Shown here: positions 2,685-49,386 of the stretch, piece by piece | Numbering within the stretch: the stretch's first letter is position 1 | Layout: every line of letters begins with the position of its first letter | Sequence record: PP359696.1 | Source: Escherichia phage Ge15 | Strand: one strand, 5' to 3' | Length of the DNA stretch: 64,000 nucleotides | Notes under the pieces: generated by a model | Database searches by the model: none | What the model saw: only the letters and a program-made list of their open reading frames with translations | What the model was told of the DNA's origin: nothing | Program-made: the position numbers and the translations under genes

Positions 2685-3002
2685 ATGAAAACGTATAAAG
2701 AATTTATTGCAGAATCTGCCGCAGGACAACGTGTAGAAGGCGGTTATATTTGGATTGAAGAAGTTGAGCCACCTAGTCGTACTTCTACTGGTAAATGGAA
2801 AATTACTGTCGATGGTCCTGGCGGAAAACGCAGAACTTTAAAAGAAATTAATGGATATTATAGTGAAGCTCTTTCAGACGCGGGCACTTATATGATGCAA
2901 ATTATGATTAAAAATCCAGAAAATCGTTTTGCAGCTAGAGTTTTCCGCCGCATTGGAAATAAACTTTACGATGCATATTCTAAAAATTTTCCTAAAGCAT
3001 AA
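2685..3002 (+). CDS. ipII: Internal protein II (capsid-targeted, injected protein)
   Basis: N-terminal capsid targeting sequence MKTYKEFIAE; order denV-ipII-ipIII as in T4. Confidence 0.7.
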   Translation: MKTYKEFIAESAAGQRVEGGYIWIEEVEPPSRTSTGKWKITVDGPGGKRRTLKEINGYYSEALSDAGTYMMQIMIKNPENRFAARVFRRIGNKLYDAYSKNFPKA

Positions 3003-3018
3003 AAATTAAAGGAAACAT

Positions 3019-3492
3019 ATGAAAACATATCAAGAATTTATTACTGAAGCAGCTATTAATTCTCAAATTATTGCTGAATCTTTTACTGATCTTTTGAAAT
3101 TTAAAAAAGGTCAAAAAATCACTGCTGTATTGGATGATGGTACAGAAGTTGAGATGGATGTACAGGGATATAATTATGCAGTAGATGGAAAACTGTATAA
3201 TAAATCTCATGCTAAATTTGATTCATTTGACGACTTTGTTAATACAGTTGAAGATGAAAAAACTCGTAGATCCATTGCAACTGGTGATGCTAAGGTTCTT
3301 ATGGCACACGGCCATGAACGCATTCGCGCTAAGCAGAATAAAATGGGCGAAGATAATTTCGCATTAGTTGGTTATCAATCTGGTAAACAAACTTATGGTT
3401 ATCAGCGTACTGCTACCATGTATAACAAAAATGGTAAAATCGCTTTCGTGAATAGTAAAGGTTCTGTTCAGTACGTTAAATCGTTCAAATAA
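3019..3492 (+). CDS. ipIII: Internal protein III (capsid-targeted, injected protein)
   Basis: N-terminal capsid targeting sequence MKTYQEFITE; basic protein; synteny. Confidence 0.7.
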   Translation: MKTYQEFITEAAINSQIIAESFTDLLKFKKGQKITAVLDDGTEVEMDVQGYNYAVDGKLYNKSHAKFDSFDDFVNTVEDEKTRRSIATGDAKVLMAHGHERIRAKQNKMGEDNFALVGYQSGKQTYGYQRTATMYNKNGKIAFVNSKGSVQYVKSFK

Positions 3493-43198: not shown

Positions 43199-44380
43199 AT
43201 GTCTATTGCAGATTTAAAATCCCGTTTGATTAAAGCTTCCACTTCTAAAATGACTGCTGAACTGACTACATCTAAATTCTTTAATGAAAAGGATGTAATC
43301 CGTACAAAAATCCCAATGCTTAATATCGCTATTTCTGGTGCGATTGATGGTGGTATGCAGTCTGGTTTAACCATTTTTGCAGGTCCTTCTAAACACTTTA
43401 AATCAAATATGTCTTTGACTATGGTTGCGGCGTATTTGAACAAATATCCTGACGCGGTTTGTCTATTCTATGATAGCGAATTTGGTATTACTCCAGCTTA
43501 TTTGCGATCCATGGGAGTTGACCCGGAACGAGTAATTCATACACCAATCCAGTCAGTTGAACAACTGAAAATTGATATGGTGAATCAGCTTGAAGCTATT
43601 GAGCGCGGTGAAAAAGTTATTGTATTCATCGACTCAATTGGTAATATGGCTTCTAAGAAAGAAACGGAAGATGCCTTGAATGAAAAATCTGTGGCAGATA
43701 TGACTCGTGCTAAATCACTGAAGTCATTATTCCGTATTGTTACTCCTTATTTTAGCATTAAAAATATTCCATGCGTTGCGGTTAACCATACAATTGAAAC
43801 AATTGAAATGTTTAGTAAAACCGTGATGACAGGTGGTACAGGCGTAATGTATTCGGCTGATACTGTATTCATTATCGGTAAACGCCAGATTAAAGATGGT
43901 TCTGATCTTCAGGGGTATCAATTTGTTCTAAATGTAGAAAAATCTCGTACCGTTAAAGAAAAAAGTAAATTCTTTATTGATGTTAAATTTGACGGCGGTA
44001 TCGATCCTTATTCTGGATTGTTAGATATGGCTCTTGAATTAGGATTTGTAGTAAAACCTAAAAATGGCTGGTATGCTCGTGAATTTCTTGATGAAGAAAC
44101 CGGCGAGATGATTCGCGAAGAAAAATCTTGGCGTGCAAAAGATACCAACTGTACTACATTCTGGGGTCCTTTATTTAAGCATCAACCATTCCGAGATGCT
44201 ATTAAACGTGCTTATCAGTTAGGTGCTATTGATAGTAATGAAATTGTTGAAGCTGAAGTTGATGAATTGATTAACTCAAAGGTTGAAAAATTTAAATATC
44301 CAGAAAGTAAAAGTAAATCAGCAGCTGATTTAGAAACTGACCTAGATCAGTTAAGTGATATGGAAGAATTTAATGAATAA
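43199..44380 (+). CDS. uvsX: UvsX recombinase (RecA/Rad51 family)
   Basis: 393 aa; Walker A GPSKHFKS; highly similar to T4 UvsX as recalled. Confidence 0.95.
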   Translation: MSIADLKSRLIKASTSKMTAELTTSKFFNEKDVIRTKIPMLNIAISGAIDGGMQSGLTIFAGPSKHFKSNMSLTMVAAYLNKYPDAVCLFYDSEFGITPAYLRSMGVDPERVIHTPIQSVEQLKIDMVNQLEAIERGEKVIVFIDSIGNMASKKETEDALNEKSVADMTRAKSLKSLFRIVTPYFSIKNIPCVAVNHTIETIEMFSKTVMTGGTGVMYSADTVFIIGKRQIKDGSDLQGYQFVLNVEKSRTVKEKSKFFIDVKFDGGIDPYSGLLDMALELGFVVKPKNGWYAREFLDEETGEMIREEKSWRAKDTNCTTFWGPLFKHQPFRDAIKRAYQLGAIDSNEIVEAEVDELINSKVEKFKYPESKSKSAADLETDLDQLSDMEEFNE

Positions 44381-44717
44381 AGATGATTTGGATTTAGATC
44401 TAGAAATTATCGACGAATCCCCCTCTTCGGAGGGGGAAGAAGAAAGAAAAGAACGTCTTTTTAATGAATCTCTTAAGATAATTAAATCTGCCATGGAAAA
44501 TGTTATCCAGGAGATTGTCATTAAACTAGAAGACGGTTCTACACACATTGTGTATGTGACAAAATTAGATTGGGTTGATGGAAAAGTCGTAATGGACTTT
44601 GCTGTTCTTGACCAAGAAAGAAAAGCTGAGTTAGCTCCTCATGTAGAAAAATGTATTACAATGCAACTACAAGATGCATTTAATAAAAGGTCAAAGAAAA
44701 AATTTAAATTCTTTTAA
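44373..44717 (+). CDS. 40: gp40 head vertex assembly chaperone (putative)
   Basis: 114 aa from ATG 44373 overlapping uvsX stop; position uvsX-40-41 as in T4. Confidence 0.6.
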   Translation: MNKDDLDLDLEIIDESPSSEGEEERKERLFNESLKIIKSAMENVIQEIVIKLEDGSTHIVYVTKLDWVDGKVVMDFAVLDQERKAELAPHVEKCITMQLQDAFNKRSKKKFKFF

Positions 44718-44726
44718 GGAGTAAGT

Positions 44727-46154
44727 GTGGTAGAAATTATTCTTTCTCATCTCATATTTGATCAAGCTTATTTTTCAAAAGTTTGGCCATATATGGATTC
44801 AGAATATTTTGAAAGTGGTCCAGCTAAAAATACATTCAAATTAATTAAATCTCATGTTAATGAGTACCATAGCGTTCCATCTATTAATGCGTTAAATGTT
44901 GCATTAGAAAATAGTTCATTTACTGAAACAGAATATTCTGGTGTAAAAACACTTATTTCAAAACTAGCCGATTCTCCGGAAGACCATAGTTGGTTAATAA
45001 AAGAAACAGAAAAATATGTTCAGCAAAGGGCGATGTTTAACGCCACATCTAAAATAATTGAAATTCAAACTAATGCTGAGCTTCCTCCGGAAAAACGAAA
45101 TAAGAAAATGCCGGATGTTGGTGCTATTCCTGACATCATGCGCCAAGCATTATCAATTTCATTTGATAGTTACGTTGGTCATGATTGGATGGATGACTAC
45201 GAAGCACGTTGGCTATCTTATATGAATAAAGCTCGTAAGGTTCCATTTAGACTCAAAATTCTAAATAAAATTACTAAAGGCGGAGCTGAAACTGGAACAC
45301 TGAACGTTTTAATGGCTGGTGTTAACGTTGGTAAGTCATTAGGATTGTGTTCATTGGCAGCAGATTATTTGCAGCTTGGTCATAACGTTCTTTATATCTC
45401 CATGGAAATGGCAGAAGAAGTCTGCGCTAAACGTATTGATGCTAATATGCTCGATGTTTCTCTTGACGATATTGATGATGGACATATTTCTTACGCCGAG
45501 TATAAAGGAAAAATGGAAAAATGGCGTGAGAAATCTACTCTCGGTCGTTTAATCGTTAAACAGTATCCTACTAGTGGAGCAGACGCTAATACATTCAGGT
45601 CTCTCTTGAATGAATTGAAGCTCAAAAAGAATTTTGTTCCAACAATCATTATTGTTGACTATCTAGGTATTTGTAAATCTTGCCGCATCAGAGTTTATTC
45701 AGAAAATAGTTACACAACTGTTAAAGCTATTGCAGAGGAATTGCGTGCTCTGGCTGTTGAAACCGAAACCGTTCTTTGGACTGCAGCACAGGTTGGTAAG
45801 CAAGCTTGGGACTCTTCTGATGTTAACATGAGCGATATTGCAGAATCTGCCGGGCTTCCAGCAACAGCCGATTTTATGCTTGCGGTCATTGAAACCGAGG
45901 AGCTAGCAGCTGCTGAACAACAACTAATTAAGCAAATCAAATCACGATATGGTGATAAGAATAAATGGAATAAGTTTTTGATGGGTGTTCAAAAAGGAAA
46001 TCAGAAATGGGTAGAAATTGAACAAGATTCTACTCCAACTGAAGTGAGTGAAGTAGCAGGTTCACAGCAGATTCAGGCTGAACAGAATCGCTATCAAAGA
46101 AACGAATCTGCTCGAGCCCAGTTAGATGCTTTGGCAAATGAATTAAAATTTTAG
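44727..46154 (+). CDS. 41: Replicative DNA helicase gp41 (DnaB family)
   Basis: 475 aa, GTG start after AAGGAG, Walker A GVNVGKS, DnaB-like motifs. Confidence 0.95.
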   Translation: MVEIILSHLIFDQAYFSKVWPYMDSEYFESGPAKNTFKLIKSHVNEYHSVPSINALNVALENSSFTETEYSGVKTLISKLADSPEDHSWLIKETEKYVQQRAMFNATSKIIEIQTNAELPPEKRNKKMPDVGAIPDIMRQALSISFDSYVGHDWMDDYEARWLSYMNKARKVPFRLKILNKITKGGAETGTLNVLMAGVNVGKSLGLCSLAADYLQLGHNVLYISMEMAEEVCAKRIDANMLDVSLDDIDDGHISYAEYKGKMEKWREKSTLGRLIVKQYPTSGADANTFRSLLNELKLKKNFVPTIIIVDYLGICKSCRIRVYSENSYTTVKAIAEELRALAVETETVLWTAAQVGKQAWDSSDVNMSDIAESAGLPATADFMLAVIETEELAAAEQQLIKQIKSRYGDKNKWNKFLMGVQKGNQKWVEIEQDSTPTEVSEVAGSQQIQAEQNRYQRNESARAQLDALANELKF

Positions 46155-46188
46155 TTTACAAGCCGACAAGACTATGGTATAGTAGTCT
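46152..46188 (+). promoter_or_regulatory. T4-type early promoter upstream of dmd-like ORF
   Basis: TAGTTTAC ... TATGGTATAGTAG; inverted repeat ACAAGACT/AGTCTTGT flanks the -10. Confidence 0.65.
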
Positions 46189-46212
46189 TGTTGGTTAAAT
46201 GAGGAGATTGTT

Positions 46213-46395
46213 ATGGAATTGGTAAAGGTAGTTTTTATGGGGTGGTTTAAGAATGAAAGCATGTTTACTAAAGAAATCACAATGATGAAAGATGACGTTC
46301 AATGGGCTACTACTCAATATGCTGAAGTTAATAAAGCATTAGTTAAAGCTTTCATTGATGACAAGAAAGTGTGCGAAGTGGATTGCCGAGGATAA
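46213..46395 (+). CDS. dmd: Dmd-like antitoxin (discriminator of mRNA degradation), putative
   Basis: 60-aa ORF immediately downstream of gene 41 behind an early promoter, matching T4 dmd (61.5) size and position. Confidence 0.55.
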   Translation: MELVKVVFMGWFKNESMFTKEITMMKDDVQWATTQYAEVNKALVKAFIDDKKVCEVDCRG

Positions 46396-46396
46396 T

Positions 46397-46654
46397 ATGC
46401 ATATTGTTTTATTTAAACCTACTCCGTATAACGTCAGGAAAAATACTCAATTCAAAGCACTTATTGCAGATACGTGGGAATTGGTGTTAGATATTCCAGC
46501 AGAAGAAAGTCCTCCATTTGGTCGAGTGGAATTTATTAAGTTTGCTGTACGTCCTACGAAGAGGCAGATTCGTCAGTATAAAAGGTATTTTCGTAAAATC
46601 GTTAAGCTAGAGAAACATTTTGTAACATGTGATTACGCAGAAGTTTTAAAATAA
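46397..46654 (+). CDS. Hypothetical protein (61.4 position)
   Basis: 85 aa from ATG 46397 after GAGGA RBS. Confidence 0.45.
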   Translation: MHIVLFKPTPYNVRKNTQFKALIADTWELVLDIPAEESPPFGRVEFIKFAVRPTKRQIRQYKRYFRKIVKLEKHFVTCDYAEVLK

Positions 46655-46692
46655 CTGTTTACTTTTGTTGGAAATTGAGATACTATATAAAC
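46655..46692 (+). promoter_or_regulatory. T4-type early promoter upstream of sp-like ORF
   Basis: CTGTTTAC ... GATACTATATAA. Confidence 0.6.
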
Positions 46693-46714
46693 ATAAACTA
46701 CTGAGGAGATTATC

Positions 46715-47008
46715 ATGAAAAAATTTATCTTTGCTACAATTTTTGCTTTAGCTTCTTGTGCTGCTCAGCCTGCTATGGCAGGTTATGATAAAGATTTGTG
46801 CGAATGGTCTATGACTGCTGATCAGACTGAGGTTGAAACTCAAATTGAAGCGGATATTATGAATATTGTTGAGCGCGATCGTCCTGAAATGAAAGCTGAA
46901 GTGCAAAAACAGCTTAAGTCTGGTGGTGTAATGCAGTATAATTATGTTCTGTATTGCGATAAAAACTTTAATAACAAAAATATCATCGCTGAAGTGGTAG
47001 GTGAATAA
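46715..47008 (+). CDS. sp: Spackle-like periplasmic protein (putative)
   Basis: 97 aa with cleavable signal peptide MKKFIFATIFALASCAAQPAMA; size/position match T4 sp (61.3); own early promoter. Confidence 0.55.
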   Translation: MKKFIFATIFALASCAAQPAMAGYDKDLCEWSMTADQTEVETQIEADIMNIVERDRPEMKAEVQKQLKSGGVMQYNYVLYCDKNFNNKNIIAEVVGE

Positions 47009-47634
47009 TGCTTTATCAAATGCACAAGTGCAAAGATACATACAAATATAAAGGTGCCCAGTGTTATATCATTAATCGTGAAAACGCGGGTCCAGGTCAT
47101 TCGCATCAATCACGGTTTGTATTCGTTAAAAACAATGAAATTATAGCAGTTGCTAATTACATGCTTGTGACTAATGATGTTAATCCGGTGCCTTTTACAT
47201 ATTATAATCTAATGGATTTGGCGTACGATTATAATTGGTTTAATCATGACACTTTGGCTCATATCGAAGGCGTAGGATTTGACATCTCTTATTCTAGTTA
47301 CTCGTTGTGTCCTATGAGCCGAGCTCATAAAGAGCCTGAATATTTTTCATTTCGTCGGCGTGTAGACTTTAAACGCAGTACAGAGTATGTCGGTGGAATA
47401 TTTGTTAAAGATAATCGAATTACTCGCATTATTTATCCTTTGGGCTGTGGTCAAAAAGATATTGATGTTGATTTAGACTTTACTGAAAACATCATTAATC
47501 ATATTGCTTCTGTGTATTTTGATATTGATCACAAAATTGTGATATGTGGATATGAATTACCATCAGAAAAACAGTCTAAAGTAAATGTTTCTATTGATGA
47601 CCAAATTTTTAATGCTTTTATGAATAAAGGTTAA
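47008..47634 (+). CDS. Hypothetical protein (61.2 position)
   Basis: 208 aa; C-terminal tail SIDDQIFNAFMNKG shared with next ORF. Confidence 0.5.
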   Translation: MLYQMHKCKDTYKYKGAQCYIINRENAGPGHSHQSRFVFVKNNEIIAVANYMLVTNDVNPVPFTYYNLMDLAYDYNWFNHDTLAHIEGVGFDISYSSYSLCPMSRAHKEPEYFSFRRRVDFKRSTEYVGGIFVKDNRITRIIYPLGCGQKDIDVDLDFTENIINHIASVYFDIDHKIVICGYELPSEKQSKVNVSIDDQIFNAFMNKG

Positions 47635-47635
47635 T

Positions 47636-47992
47636 ATGTATAGTTCTGAATTTTCATATTTAAAAATGGAAAAAATTTCATACGATTTTATAGATGAAAA
47701 GGTTTATTACAGTTTCCATGAACCACGTTTTAATAGTGAGGTTGGGTTTATTGTAGTAAAAGACAATTTCATTTTAAAGATATATTCAGCATTAAAGGAT
47801 TTTCACTACGAAAATATTAACCTAAAATTTGATAAAGAAAACGTTCGTAATTGTGCAGTAACAATTACAGGAAATAAAGGCACATGTGTTATGCTATCTG
47901 ATGAAATTAATGATTTGCTAAATGATGCCGAAAAGGTTGCTATTCCATCTATTGATGACCAAATTTTTAATGCTTTTATGAATAGAGGTTAA
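47636..47992 (+). CDS. Hypothetical protein (61.1 position)
   Basis: 118 aa; C-terminal tail SIDDQIFNAFMNRG duplicated from upstream ORF. Confidence 0.5.
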   Translation: MYSSEFSYLKMEKISYDFIDEKVYYSFHEPRFNSEVGFIVVKDNFILKIYSALKDFHYENINLKFDKENVRNCAVTITGNKGTCVMLSDEINDLLNDAEKVAIPSIDDQIFNAFMNRG

Positions 47993-47993
47993 T

Positions 47994-48158
47994 ATGAAAA
48001 CATATAAAGAATTTATTAAAGAAGATATGGTAGCTGGAGATTCAGGTGGTAATCCTGAAAATATCTCTACTGGAACAACGTCAGGTGCTGTAGTAAATAA
48101 AGGTCCTGAACAGATTCCTAAAAAGAAAAAAGAGGAATCTAAAGAAAAAGAAGAGTAA
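47994..48158 (+). CDS. Small capsid-targeting-sequence (CTS) protein, candidate internal protein
   Basis: 54-aa ORF not in track; N-terminus MKTYKEFIKE matches ipII/ipIII CTS; Lys/Glu-rich C-terminus. Confidence 0.4.
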   Translation: MKTYKEFIKEDMVAGDSGGNPENISTGTTSGAVVNKGPEQIPKKKKEESKEKEE

Positions 48159-48160
48159 AA

Positions 48161-49189
48161 ATGTCATCAATACCTTGGATTGATAATGAGTTTGCATACC
48201 GTGCATTGGCTCATTTACCTAAATTCGCACAAGTAAATAATAGTTCAACTTTTAAATTACGGTTTAGATGCCCTGTTTGTGGAGATTCAAAAACCGACCA
48301 AAATAAAGCCCGTGGATGGTATTATGGTGATAATAATGAAGGAAATATTCATTGTTATAACTGTAACTATCATGCACCAATCGGAATATATTTAAAGGAG
48401 TTTGAACCTGATTTATATCGTGAGTATATCTTTGAAATAAGAAAAGAAAAAGGTAAAAGTCGTCCAGTAGAAAAACCTAAAGAACTTCCTAAACAACCCG
48501 AGAAGAAAATAATTAAATCTCTTCCGTCATGTGTTAGATTAGATAAACTGACGGAAGACCATCCAATTATAAAATACATAAAAGCTCGCTGTATTCCAAA
48601 GGATAAATGGAAATATCTTTGGTTTACAACTGAATGGCCTAAATTAGTTAATAGCATAGCGCCGGGAACATATAAAAAGGAAATACCTGAGCCTCGTCTT
48701 GTTATTCCAATTTATAATGCTAATGGAAAAGCTGAGTCGTTTCAAGGACGTGCATTAAAGAAAGATGCTCCTCAAAAATATATCACCATCAAAGCTTATC
48801 CTGAAGCAACAAAAATCTATGGAGTCGAACGGGTTAAAGATGGTGATGTATATGTTCTAGAAGGACCTATAGATTCACTTTTTATTGAAAATGGTATAGC
48901 TATTACGGGTGGTCAATTAGACCTAGAAGTTGTTCCATTTAAAGATAGACGCGTGTGGGTTTTAGATAATGAACCTCGTCACCCTGACACTATTAAGCGA
49001 ATGACTAAATTAGTTGATGCAGGAGAAAGGGTTATGTTTTGGGACAAATCTCCCTGGAAATCAAAAGATGTTAATGATATGATTAGAAAGGAAGGTGCAA
49101 CCCCTGAACAAATTATGGAATATATGAAAAATAATATTGCGCAGGGGTTGATGGCTAAAATGCGGCTATCTAAATATGCTAAGATTTAA
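48161..49189 (+). CDS. 61: DNA primase gp61
   Basis: 342 aa; N-terminal zinc ribbon CPVCGDS...CYNCNYH, Toprim-like C-terminal region. Confidence 0.93.
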   Translation: MSSIPWIDNEFAYRALAHLPKFAQVNNSSTFKLRFRCPVCGDSKTDQNKARGWYYGDNNEGNIHCYNCNYHAPIGIYLKEFEPDLYREYIFEIRKEKGKSRPVEKPKELPKQPEKKIIKSLPSCVRLDKLTEDHPIIKYIKARCIPKDKWKYLWFTTEWPKLVNSIAPGTYKKEIPEPRLVIPIYNANGKAESFQGRALKKDAPQKYITIKAYPEATKIYGVERVKDGDVYVLEGPIDSLFIENGIAITGGQLDLEVVPFKDRRVWVLDNEPRHPDTIKRMTKLVDAGERVMFWDKSPWKSKDVNDMIRKEGATPEQIMEYMKNNIAQGLMAKMRLSKYAKI

Positions 49190-49386
49190 ATTAACCCAAC
49201 TAAAGCAAATGCTAAATCTACGAATGTATCAAGAGTAATTACTGGAATATTAACACCATGAGCAATAGCAATTGGTGATAAAACAAAATTCCAGAGTAAA
49301 ATTCCTACCATAGCAGAAATAGTAAAAGCTATACGTTTTTTATTACCTTTTATGGCATTAACAAGTGCCATTAATTTTTGTACCAT
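49186..49386 (-). CDS. Hypothetical small membrane protein (reverse strand)
   Basis: 66 aa, two hydrophobic helices; GGAGGA RBS 4 nt upstream of ATG on minus strand; lies in the 61-56 intergenic space rather than inside a + strand gene. Confidence 0.4.
   Translation of the reverse strand: MVQKLMALVNAIKGNKKRIAFTISAMVGILLWNFVLSPIAIAHGVNIPVITLDTFVDLAFALVGLI

Follow-up and report, generated by a model that had tools for sequence, protein, structure and literature searches.

The 54-codon open reading frame at positions 47994..48158 (+ strand) of the window, the 64,000-nucleotide stretch of Escherichia phage Ge15 DNA (PP359696.1) analysed here, is gene 61.1, a real protein-coding gene common to T4-like phages. 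Read from its sequence, the product gp61.1 is a three-part protein, composed of a 10-residue propeptide of the capsid targeting sequence (CTS) type, a 28-residue gp23*-like segment and a short Lys-rich tail. It is, in effect, a free-standing copy of residues 55-98 of gp23, the major capsid protein, carrying the cut site of the prohead protease gp21 and the N-fist, and it probably belongs to the class of gp21-processed, prohead-targeted proteins. In the literature searched, no paper was found that treats the function of 61.1 or ties it to a CTS, and this CTS-plus-N-fist architecture appears undescribed there.

The gene encodes 54 amino acids plus a stop codon from an ATG start (ORF list), with the translation MKTYKEFIKEDMVAGDSGGNPENISTGTTSGAVVNKGPEQIPKKKKEESKEKEE. 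A Shine-Dalgarno GAGG can be read directly from the sequence at 47985..47988 (+), 5 nt before the ATG, and the stop codon of the preceding ORF lies 1 nt 5' of this ATG. Over residues 1-54 of 54 the protein matches phrog_1823, the short form of the family (E 7e-34), and it also matches phrog_2086, the long form (E 2.6e-16). Many Tequatrovirus genomes match the region at 98-99% identity, and the name 61.1 has already been given to the orthologous ORF in the RB51, T2, RB14, AR1 and T4 records, the RB51 record labelling it '61.1, gp61.1 hypothetical protein'. T4 gp61.1 (MKTFKEFIKEDMVAGDSGGNPENISIGTTSGAVVNKGPEQIPKKKKEESKEKEE) begins MKTFKEFIKE. The original prediction had presented the ORF as new and unannotated, which is wrong since it is annotated as gene 61.1 in all five phages; as that prediction also remarked, a 54-aa ORF is missing from an ORF track with a 60-aa cut-off, and it is missing nowhere else.

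Upstream and on the same strand lies gene 61.2, or adfA, encoding anti-DarT factor A (47008..47634; Pfam PF23813, E 1.7e-136; PMC9391042). It is followed at 47636..47992 (+) by a 118-aa ORF of the RB32ORF033c type, a truncated AdfA/gp61.2 paralogue by the RB51 annotation and by a PF23813 match over residues 22-118 (E 2.3e-8); the label '61.1-position gene' formerly attached to this ORF was mistaken. A 49-nt direct repeat (+), with copy 1 at 47590-47638 and copy 2 at 47948-47996, marks a tandem partial duplication of 61.2, and copy 2 takes in the final 13 codons and the stop codon of the upstream ORF together with the 61.1 ATG. The repeat stops precisely with the ATG, which leaves the CTS codons beyond it, and T4 has a 61.1 start of the same type without the extra RB32ORF033c-type ORF; the CTS is therefore not a by-product of the duplication. 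The scenario in which the CTS-like start derived from the duplicated junction, offered earlier as one that might refute the prediction, is excluded on both grounds. Downstream, the ORF list and genome comparison place the DNA primase gene 61 (48161..49189, +), a conserved neighbour of 61.1. Gene 61.1 closes the dmd-tifA-sp-adfA cluster, in a region of early replication and anti-toxin genes away from the head gene cluster.

Codons 11-38 (DMVAGDSGGNPENISTGTTSGAVVNKGP; 48024..48107, +) are the most conserved part of 61.1 in the family alignments and are homologous to gp23* residues 66-93, which comprise the 'N-fist' (residues 66-91; PMC7136217) and the start of the N-arm. BLASTP comparison of gp61.1 residues 2-38 with gp23 residues 57-93 of RB51, a phage nearly identical to the window in this region, gave an ungapped alignment with 43% identity and a pairwise E of 1e-8. 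From residue 57, gp23 reads QAFGSFLTE↓AEIGGDHGYNATNIAAGQTSGAVTQIGP and, from residue 2, gp61.1 reads KTYKEFIKE↓DMVAGDSGGNPENISTGTTSGAVVNKGP, where the arrow marks the gp21 cut in gp23. Glu10 of gp61.1 falls on gp23 Glu65, the residue preceding the gp21 maturation cut (LTE↓AE). Among PDB sequences, gp23 was the sole significant match, with E 0.0085 for the single sequence and 1.2e-5 for the family profile. In hhalign, against a gp23 profile built from the N-termini of six genera, the gp61.1 family scored 97.6% (E 4.6e-12; 44 columns, residues 1-43 versus 55-98) and the long-form family 97.9% (E 4.4e-13). A tblastn search with the 54 residues also returned one distant match inside gene 23 of Acinetobacter phage 133.

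This relationship has limits of detection and of extent. An exhaustive HMMER search of 1.84 billion representatives recovered 50 family members with no full-length gp23 among them, so that it takes a smaller search space or a profile-profile comparison to reveal the gp23 link. Against Pfam, gp61.1 gave no match at E <= 1, the Gp23 domain (PF07068) included, because the Gp23 model begins at gp23 residue 88; it covers residues 88-517, and gp61.1 corresponds to residues 55-98 alone. The two proteins have a Glu in the same register and share the pattern G-D-x-G-x-N-x-x-N-I-x-x-G-x-T-S-G-A-V-x-x-x-G-P. Unlike gp23, gp61.1 has no HK97-fold body, and a Lys/Arg-rich tail stands where gp23 has the rest of its N-arm. 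Without an HK97-fold body or a Pfam Gp23 match it cannot be a capsid subunit, and the 'major capsid protein' names that several database records give to 61.1 homologues are mis-annotations. AlphaFold2 predicts gp61.1 to be disordered (mean pLDDT 59.5), with a lone helix at residues 4-13. The description of the remainder of the protein as short, flexible and Lys/Glu-rich thus held as far as disorder is concerned, but this remainder is no generic filler, residues 11-38 matching gp23. The Lys-rich tail itself is encoded by codons 39-54 (EQIPKKKKEESKEKEE; 48108..48155, +).

The first ten codons, MKTYKEFIKE (47994..48023, +), specify a CTS-like propeptide with a putative gp21 site, I-K-E↓D, and align with gp23 residues 56-65 (AQAFGSFLTE). 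Exactly three ORFs in the 64-kb window start with M-K-T-Y-[KQ]-E-F-I-x-E: 61.1 and two ORFs of the ipIII/ipII locus, one of 105 aa at 2685 and one of 157 aa at 3019, the latter a PHROG 'internal virion protein' with DUF7412. By our own rough reckoning, the number of such starts expected by chance would be far below one per window. Suppressor genetics of IPIII assigned CTS positions 4 and 7 to targeting and positions 8 and 10 to processing (Mullaney and Black 1996, via PMC9026906). When sequences are compared, Y4, F7, I8 and E10 of gp61.1 are identical to the residues of IPIII and of the window's two ip-position ORFs, and at this level the CTS-like start announced by the original prediction is borne out. 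The same four positions align with gp23 F59, F62, L63 and E65; in gp23 aligned across six genera, F59 and E65 are invariant, while position 62 is F or S and position 63 is L or I. Since gp61.1 aligns with both the CTS determinants and the gp23 junction, it bridges the internal-protein CTS and the gp23 cleavage junction, and the CTS would seem to be an element of the same kind as the end of the gp23 propeptide. The three-way alignment of internal-protein CTS, gp61.1 and gp23 56-65 suggests an origin for the CTS.

The tag is also found beyond these proteins. A scan of IMG/VR for M-x-x-FKQFVE, the start of Krischvirus 61.1, yielded 79 loci, mostly genuine starts of unrelated small ORFs, and N-termini of the MK[TS]FKQFVE type stand at the front of dozens of unrelated small ORFs on IMG/VR contigs. 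Fronting so many unrelated ORFs, the N-terminal tag is therefore portable, modular and widespread. In Krischvirus-sized IMG/VR contigs the scan matched at 61.1 alone, and it is uninformative on co-variation between the CTS of 61.1 and that of ip genes.

Homologues of gp61.1 were detected by tblastn with the 54 residues in 1,396 phage records, spanning Tequatrovirus, Mosigvirus, Krischvirus, Pseudotevenvirus and phages of Acinetobacter and Aeromonas; 356 records are at least 99% identical over aligned query residues 1-42. Records with gp61.1 versus records with primase numbered 610 versus 640 for Escherichia, 276 versus 321 for Klebsiella, 65 versus 71 for Acinetobacter and 63 versus 81 for Aeromonas. 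The gp23 junction and N-fist occur in 1,493 records of the same genera, and the primase in 2,386. In cyanophages and Ackermannviridae, gp61.1 and the gp23 junction/N-fist were both undetected though the primase is present. Across genera, 12-19 of 25 positions of the 28-residue core are identical. Between T4-type and RB43-type phages, identity of the core is 54% over residues 5-41, near the identity of about 50% between the primases of T4-type phages and a distant Klebsiella T4-like phage. Such conservation in the alignments shows gene 61.1 to be evidently under purifying selection.

We assembled the family from the HMMER members, to which loci of RB43, Ac42, a Krischvirus and an Aeromonas phage were added. 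Its common module consists of hydrophobic-x-Glu, [DEA]-[MV]-[VT]-[AGS]-G-D-x-G-G, N-I-A-x-G-x-T-S-G-A-[IV], G-P and a K/R-rich tail, and gp61.1 of the window conforms to it. Motifs were counted in 51 representatives of 50%-identity clusters. In all 51 a Glu precedes the [AGS]-G-D core by 3-4 residues, and 46 of the 51 have L, I, F, M or V two positions ahead of this conserved Glu, against a background hydrophobic frequency of 0.28. The tails of these representatives contain a median of 7 K/R versus 2 D/E, and in most lineages other than that of the window the tail is polybasic (KKKRK-type).

The front end of the protein is far less constant. Short forms begin with a CTS-like front peptide of 10-25 residues, often MK[TS]F-x-[ED]-F-[VIL]-x-E, and long forms (phrog_2086) with a helical front domain of ~100 residues, giving proteins of 166 aa in RB43, 150 aa in Ac42 and 159 aa in KVP40; the long forms carry a second invariant N-L-T-E. 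A swappable front end joined to a retained cut site and core would be expected if a propeptide takes its protein to the prohead core and is cut off there. The AlphaFold2 model of the long-form N-domain is of moderate confidence, with pLDDT 80-88 from about residue 10 to residue 70. With this domain Foldseek found no match in the PDB and only uncharacterised phage homologues in BFVD. The C-terminal extensions of the fused members P0040, P0054 and P0058 have no functional PHROG match.

Our favoured reading, held tentatively, is that gp61.1 may be recruited to the prohead core and cut there by gp21. Prohead protease gp21 recognises hydrophobic-x-Glu, in T4 usually with L or I (PMC9026906, PMC5694885), and at the motif level gp61.1 has a predicted cut site, I-K-E↓D, after Glu10. 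Residues 66-105 of gp23, which include the counterpart of the gp61.1 core, are disordered inside the unexpanded head, where they probably touch the scaffolding core (PMC9546572), and after expansion they are externalised, touch four neighbouring subunits and help to build the Soc site (PMC9546572, PMC9958956). We infer that gp61.1 would bind the scaffolding core through the contacts used by the gp23 junction and the internal-protein CTS, that shell formation would enclose the core-bound protein and that gp21 would then cut it after Glu10 to release a disordered peptide of 44 residues. This peptide might later stay with the DNA, exit through capsomer pores or modulate contacts between gp23 and the core. 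A mature peptide produced by this cut would have a net charge of -2 (7 Lys versus 9 Asp/Glu). The prohead core proteins gp67 and gp68 offer a parallel: both are small, both go into the core, and gp21 cleaves them to short peptides; they differ from gp61.1 in being acidic and encoded in the late head cluster 20-67-68-21-22-23, and no similarity was seen when the RB43 gp67 and gp68 sequences were read side by side with gp61.1.

In weighing prohead targeting, we counted for it the IPIII-like CTS residues, the gp23 homology with Glu10 on Glu65 and the conserved gp21 motif, together with the swappable front end, the portable tag, the location of gp23 66-105 inside the unexpanded head and the phyletic range shared with the N-fist. 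Counted against it were non-detection in the T4 proteome, the lack of an exact late promoter, the early gene cluster and the lack of co-variation with gp23, as well as the net charge of -2 of the mature peptide, unlike the basic internal proteins.

Co-variation was sought in five genomes (RB51, RB43, Ac42, Makalu and Aeromonas 60AhydR15PP) by pairing gp61.1 with gp23. No lineage-specific signal was found, with 12-16 of 25 positions identical within genomes and 10-16 of 25 between genomes. As identities within a genome are no higher than those between genomes, there is neither a co-variation signal nor a sign of recent gene conversion, and gp61.1 and gp23 are not demonstrably co-evolving in these five pairs.

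A more specific, and distinctly improbable, version of a head role would make gp61.1 a 'spare N-fist' acting in trans, in which the gp21-cut peptide would occupy or compete for N-fist and scaffold sites and thereby tune the size, expansion or stability of the prohead. Candidate sites could lie beside the gp24 pentons, which are without an N-fist, at the portal with its five disordered gp23 N-fists, or on gp22, where the N-terminus of gp23 has a part in determining capsid length. As a corollary, the internal-protein CTS could have evolved from the gp23 cleavage junction, with gp61.1 as a surviving intermediate.

No exact copy of the late promoter TATAAATA was found in window region 44000-48000, which holds one-mismatch variants only. 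In T4, the 61.1 transcript is classed as 'early' and gp61.1 was undetected at every time point of an infection proteome (Class_P = NA; PMC9697503 Table S2). The same study classes gene 40, a head vertex chaperone gene of the same early region, and ipII/ipIII as having an 'early' transcript and a 'late' protein (PMC9697503), so that an early transcript is compatible with a head role. Nine processed T4 head proteins are discussed in a mass-spectrometry study, and gp61.1 is not among them (PMC5694885). In the literature searched, no detection of gp61.1 in virions was found. A K-rich peptide of 5 kDa is easily missed by shotgun proteomics. The tryptic peptide of the uncut form is EDMVAGDSGGNPENISTGTTSGAVVNK, and the semi-tryptic form expected after a cut at Glu10 is DMVAGDSGGNPENISTGTTSGAVVNK.

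The main rival, which we consider rather unlikely, holds that gp61.1 is an early cytoplasmic protein that is never packaged and acts in trans as a mimic of the gp23 junction. A host factor that senses the N-terminal region of new gp23, such as a capsid-sensing defence or a host protease, could be its target, with gp61.1 as decoy or antagonist, or else gp61.1 could compete from outside the head and so adjust the interactions of gp23 with the scaffold or with gp21. The early T4 transcript, the lack of an exact late promoter and the lack of reported virion detection agree with this explanation, as does a homology to gp23 that reaches well past the 10-residue tag. The location of 61.1 agrees with it too, at the end of a dmd - 61.4 (tifA) - sp - 61.2 (adfA) cluster that has been called an anti-toxin island and whose other genes are considered 'attractive anti-toxin candidates' (PMC9391042). 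The likeness to these neighbours is one of setting, all being small genes of the same early-region cluster that were formerly 'hypothetical'. The products of dmd, tifA and adfA are cytoplasmic and act against toxin-antitoxin systems, whereas gp61.1 has no sequence kinship with them and no link to a toxin; with no functional match in Pfam or PHROG, its sole connection to counter-defence is proximity to adfA, tifA and dmd. We know of no defence system that senses gp23 residues 56-98. Anti-defence genes are usually patchy in distribution, but 61.1 is near-universal in its clade. If a decoy never met gp21, a strict hydrophobic-x-Glu in the gp23 register would serve no obvious need, nor would the second invariant NLTE of the long forms, although copying an uncleaved gp23 junction could explain the first of these motifs. 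Mimicry of the Gol/Lit trigger was set aside, the Lit-activating Gol peptide lying, as we take it, just C-terminal to the gp23 stretch homologous to gp61.1.

Prohead targeting can also be read in the classical manner, with gp61.1 as an internal protein that is packaged through its CTS, processed and injected with the DNA as an anti-restriction or anti-defence effector like IPI*. We regard this as improbable. The CTS match and the conserved cut site speak for it, as do the anti-defence neighbourhood and the Lys-rich tail, lysines of internal proteins being in contact with packaged DNA (PMC3012670). IPI, IPII and IPIII indeed resemble gp61.1 in their starts (MKTYQEFITE and MKTYKEFIAE in the window versus MKTYKEFIKE), in their hydrophobic-x-Glu and in being Lys-rich. 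In contrast to them, gp61.1 is much smaller, predicted to be disordered, near-universal and without an exact late promoter; its gene adjoins that of the primase instead of lying at the ip loci, and its 'cargo' reproduces a segment of the capsid protein. Internal proteins have a mature part that is polymorphic, lineage-specific, folded and basic, whereas gp61.1 belongs to the quasi-core of these genomes, with 12-19 of 25 core residues identical across genera, at least 99% identity in the 356 records mentioned above and a net charge of -2. A processed product of 44 aa, disordered and with this charge, offers nothing that resembles a folded effector such as IPI*, and a conserved part that copies a gp23 structural element points to assembly and not to a host target. 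The absence of an exact late promoter, the non-detection in the T4 proteome and the lack of a virion report in the literature searched weigh against an injected effector as well. The original prediction had implied that 61.1 would be as polymorphic as ip genes, and instead the gene is highly conserved, and nearly universal, among T4-like genera whose gp23 carries an N-fist; its further suggestion of an injected anti-defence protein finds no support in a near-universal gene with an early T4 transcript and a protein undetected in the T4 infection proteome.

Slightly less probable still is a role in replication or in primase expression, either as a basic DNA-binding accessory of the 41/61 primosome or as a leader coupled to gene 61, the likeness to gp23 then being a relic. 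Gene 61.1 lies directly 5' of gene 61 in T4-type phages, RB43, Ac42 and KVP40, and 2 nt separate its stop codon from the start of gene 61, whose ribosome-binding region is overlapped by the final codons of 61.1; the polybasic tail of most lineages would also suit such a function. In Krischvirus and Tulanevirus, however, one or two other ORFs stand between 61.1 and gene 61, and the coupling is therefore not conserved. Conservation lies in the gp23-like core and the Glu motif and not in the tail, and 61.1 was not detected in cyanophages or Ackermannviridae, although these carry the same primase.

That 61.1 is a chance ORF or a functionless by-product of local duplication, as its shortness (54 aa) and the adjoining 49-nt direct repeat might suggest, has next to no likelihood: the chance ORF is effectively refuted by an intact frame in about 1,400 phage records of several genera and by a core whose conservation is close to that of the primase in the pairings given above, and the duplication artefact is rejected by a repeat that stops at the ATG and by the presence of 61.1 in T4 without the duplication.

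The assembly of the T4 head is among the best-studied assembly pathways, and foreign proteins are loaded into phage heads by means of its CTS. If gp61.1 is never packaged, it would offer a rare instance of a phage copying its own capsid protein in trans. Were it packaged and cut instead, a near-universal gene of 54 aa would prove to be an overlooked player in T4 head assembly.

Two of the gp61.1 family representatives recovered by the HMMER search, and a number of database names, call for caution. P0018 and P0039 correspond to gp61.1 in which T>I, S>F/L, P>F and A>V substitutions occur systematically (MKIFKEFIKEDMVVGDLGGNFENIFIGIILGVVVNKGFEQIFKKKKEEFKEKEE), the pattern expected from reading every C as T. 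Rather than real variants, both are probably artefacts of sequencing or assembly, such as cytosine conversion or modification could produce. On the side of nomenclature, many of the GenBank/UniRef entries for 61.1 homologues bear the name "major capsid protein" or "major capsid domain-containing protein"; a single entry is labelled "methyltransferase". Since the similarity of the misnamed homologues to gp23 is limited to a segment of about 40 residues, covering the cleavage junction and N-fist, these names are mis-annotations.

The genomic surroundings of 61.1 in phage Ge15 present several particularities. Upstream, an extra 118-aa ORF (47636-47992, + strand; Pfam PF23813 over residues 22-118) separates 61.1 from 61.2 (adfA); RB51/RB32-type phages carry this ORF and T4 lacks it. 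It is a truncated paralogue corresponding to the C-terminal half of AdfA. Bounded by the two copies of a 49-nt direct repeat (47590-47638 and 47948-47996), it thus represents a tandem partial duplication of the anti-DarT gene. Downstream, a hydrophobic 66-aa ORF (49186-49386, - strand) is placed between genes 61 (primase) and 56 (dCTPase), on the strand opposite to gene 61, whose 3' end it overlaps by 4 nt. This ORF is the counterpart of RB32ORF030w, of phrog_2024 (unknown function), and has the appearance of a small membrane protein. Downstream of 61.1, the closest exact match to the late-promoter consensus (TATAAATA) is found past genes 61 and 56, at about 50347 on the + strand; by analogy with RB51, where the genes run 61, 56, soc, this promoter is probably situated just upstream of soc. 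The gp23 N-fist forms part of the site to which the soc product binds, but the nearness of the promoter to 61.1 is probably coincidental.

The ipIII/ipII locus of the window carries two ORFs with a capsid targeting sequence (CTS), both on the + strand: one of 105 aa (2685-3002; phrog_3966, unknown function) and one of 157 aa (3019-3492; phrog_3155 "internal virion protein", DUF7412). Neither has the length of T4 ipIII or ipII, whose genes measure 582 and 303 nt, respectively (PMC9697503 Table S2), a difference that fits the known polymorphism of internal-protein repertoires.

Going beyond single modules, in the family members P0040, P0054 and P0058 the reading frame extends past the gp61.1 module and the basic tail attached to it, through a second CTS-like motif (…KKKVKRK-MNEVSNFKQFVEGLE…) and then another domain, about 100 aa long and of unknown function. 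This layout resembles a polyprotein of prohead-protease substrates. In the uncultivated viral contigs of IMG/VR, dozens of unrelated small ORFs start with an MK[TS]FKQFVE-type sequence (loci L012-L090), and sometimes several adjacent ORFs of one contig all bear such N-termini, as at locus L069 (240-416, 1871-2080 and 3033-3233, all on the - strand). Some of these tagged ORFs share a gp61.1-like layout, with the tag, a Gly/Ala-rich stretch and a basic tail (e.g. MKTFKQFVEEAGVAINAVGAGNVQGIGFGPKGEPGGRKAIMNKMLKRKPV). The occurrence of these starts on so many ORFs suggests that tagging of the CTS type extends far beyond the internal proteins of T-even phages.
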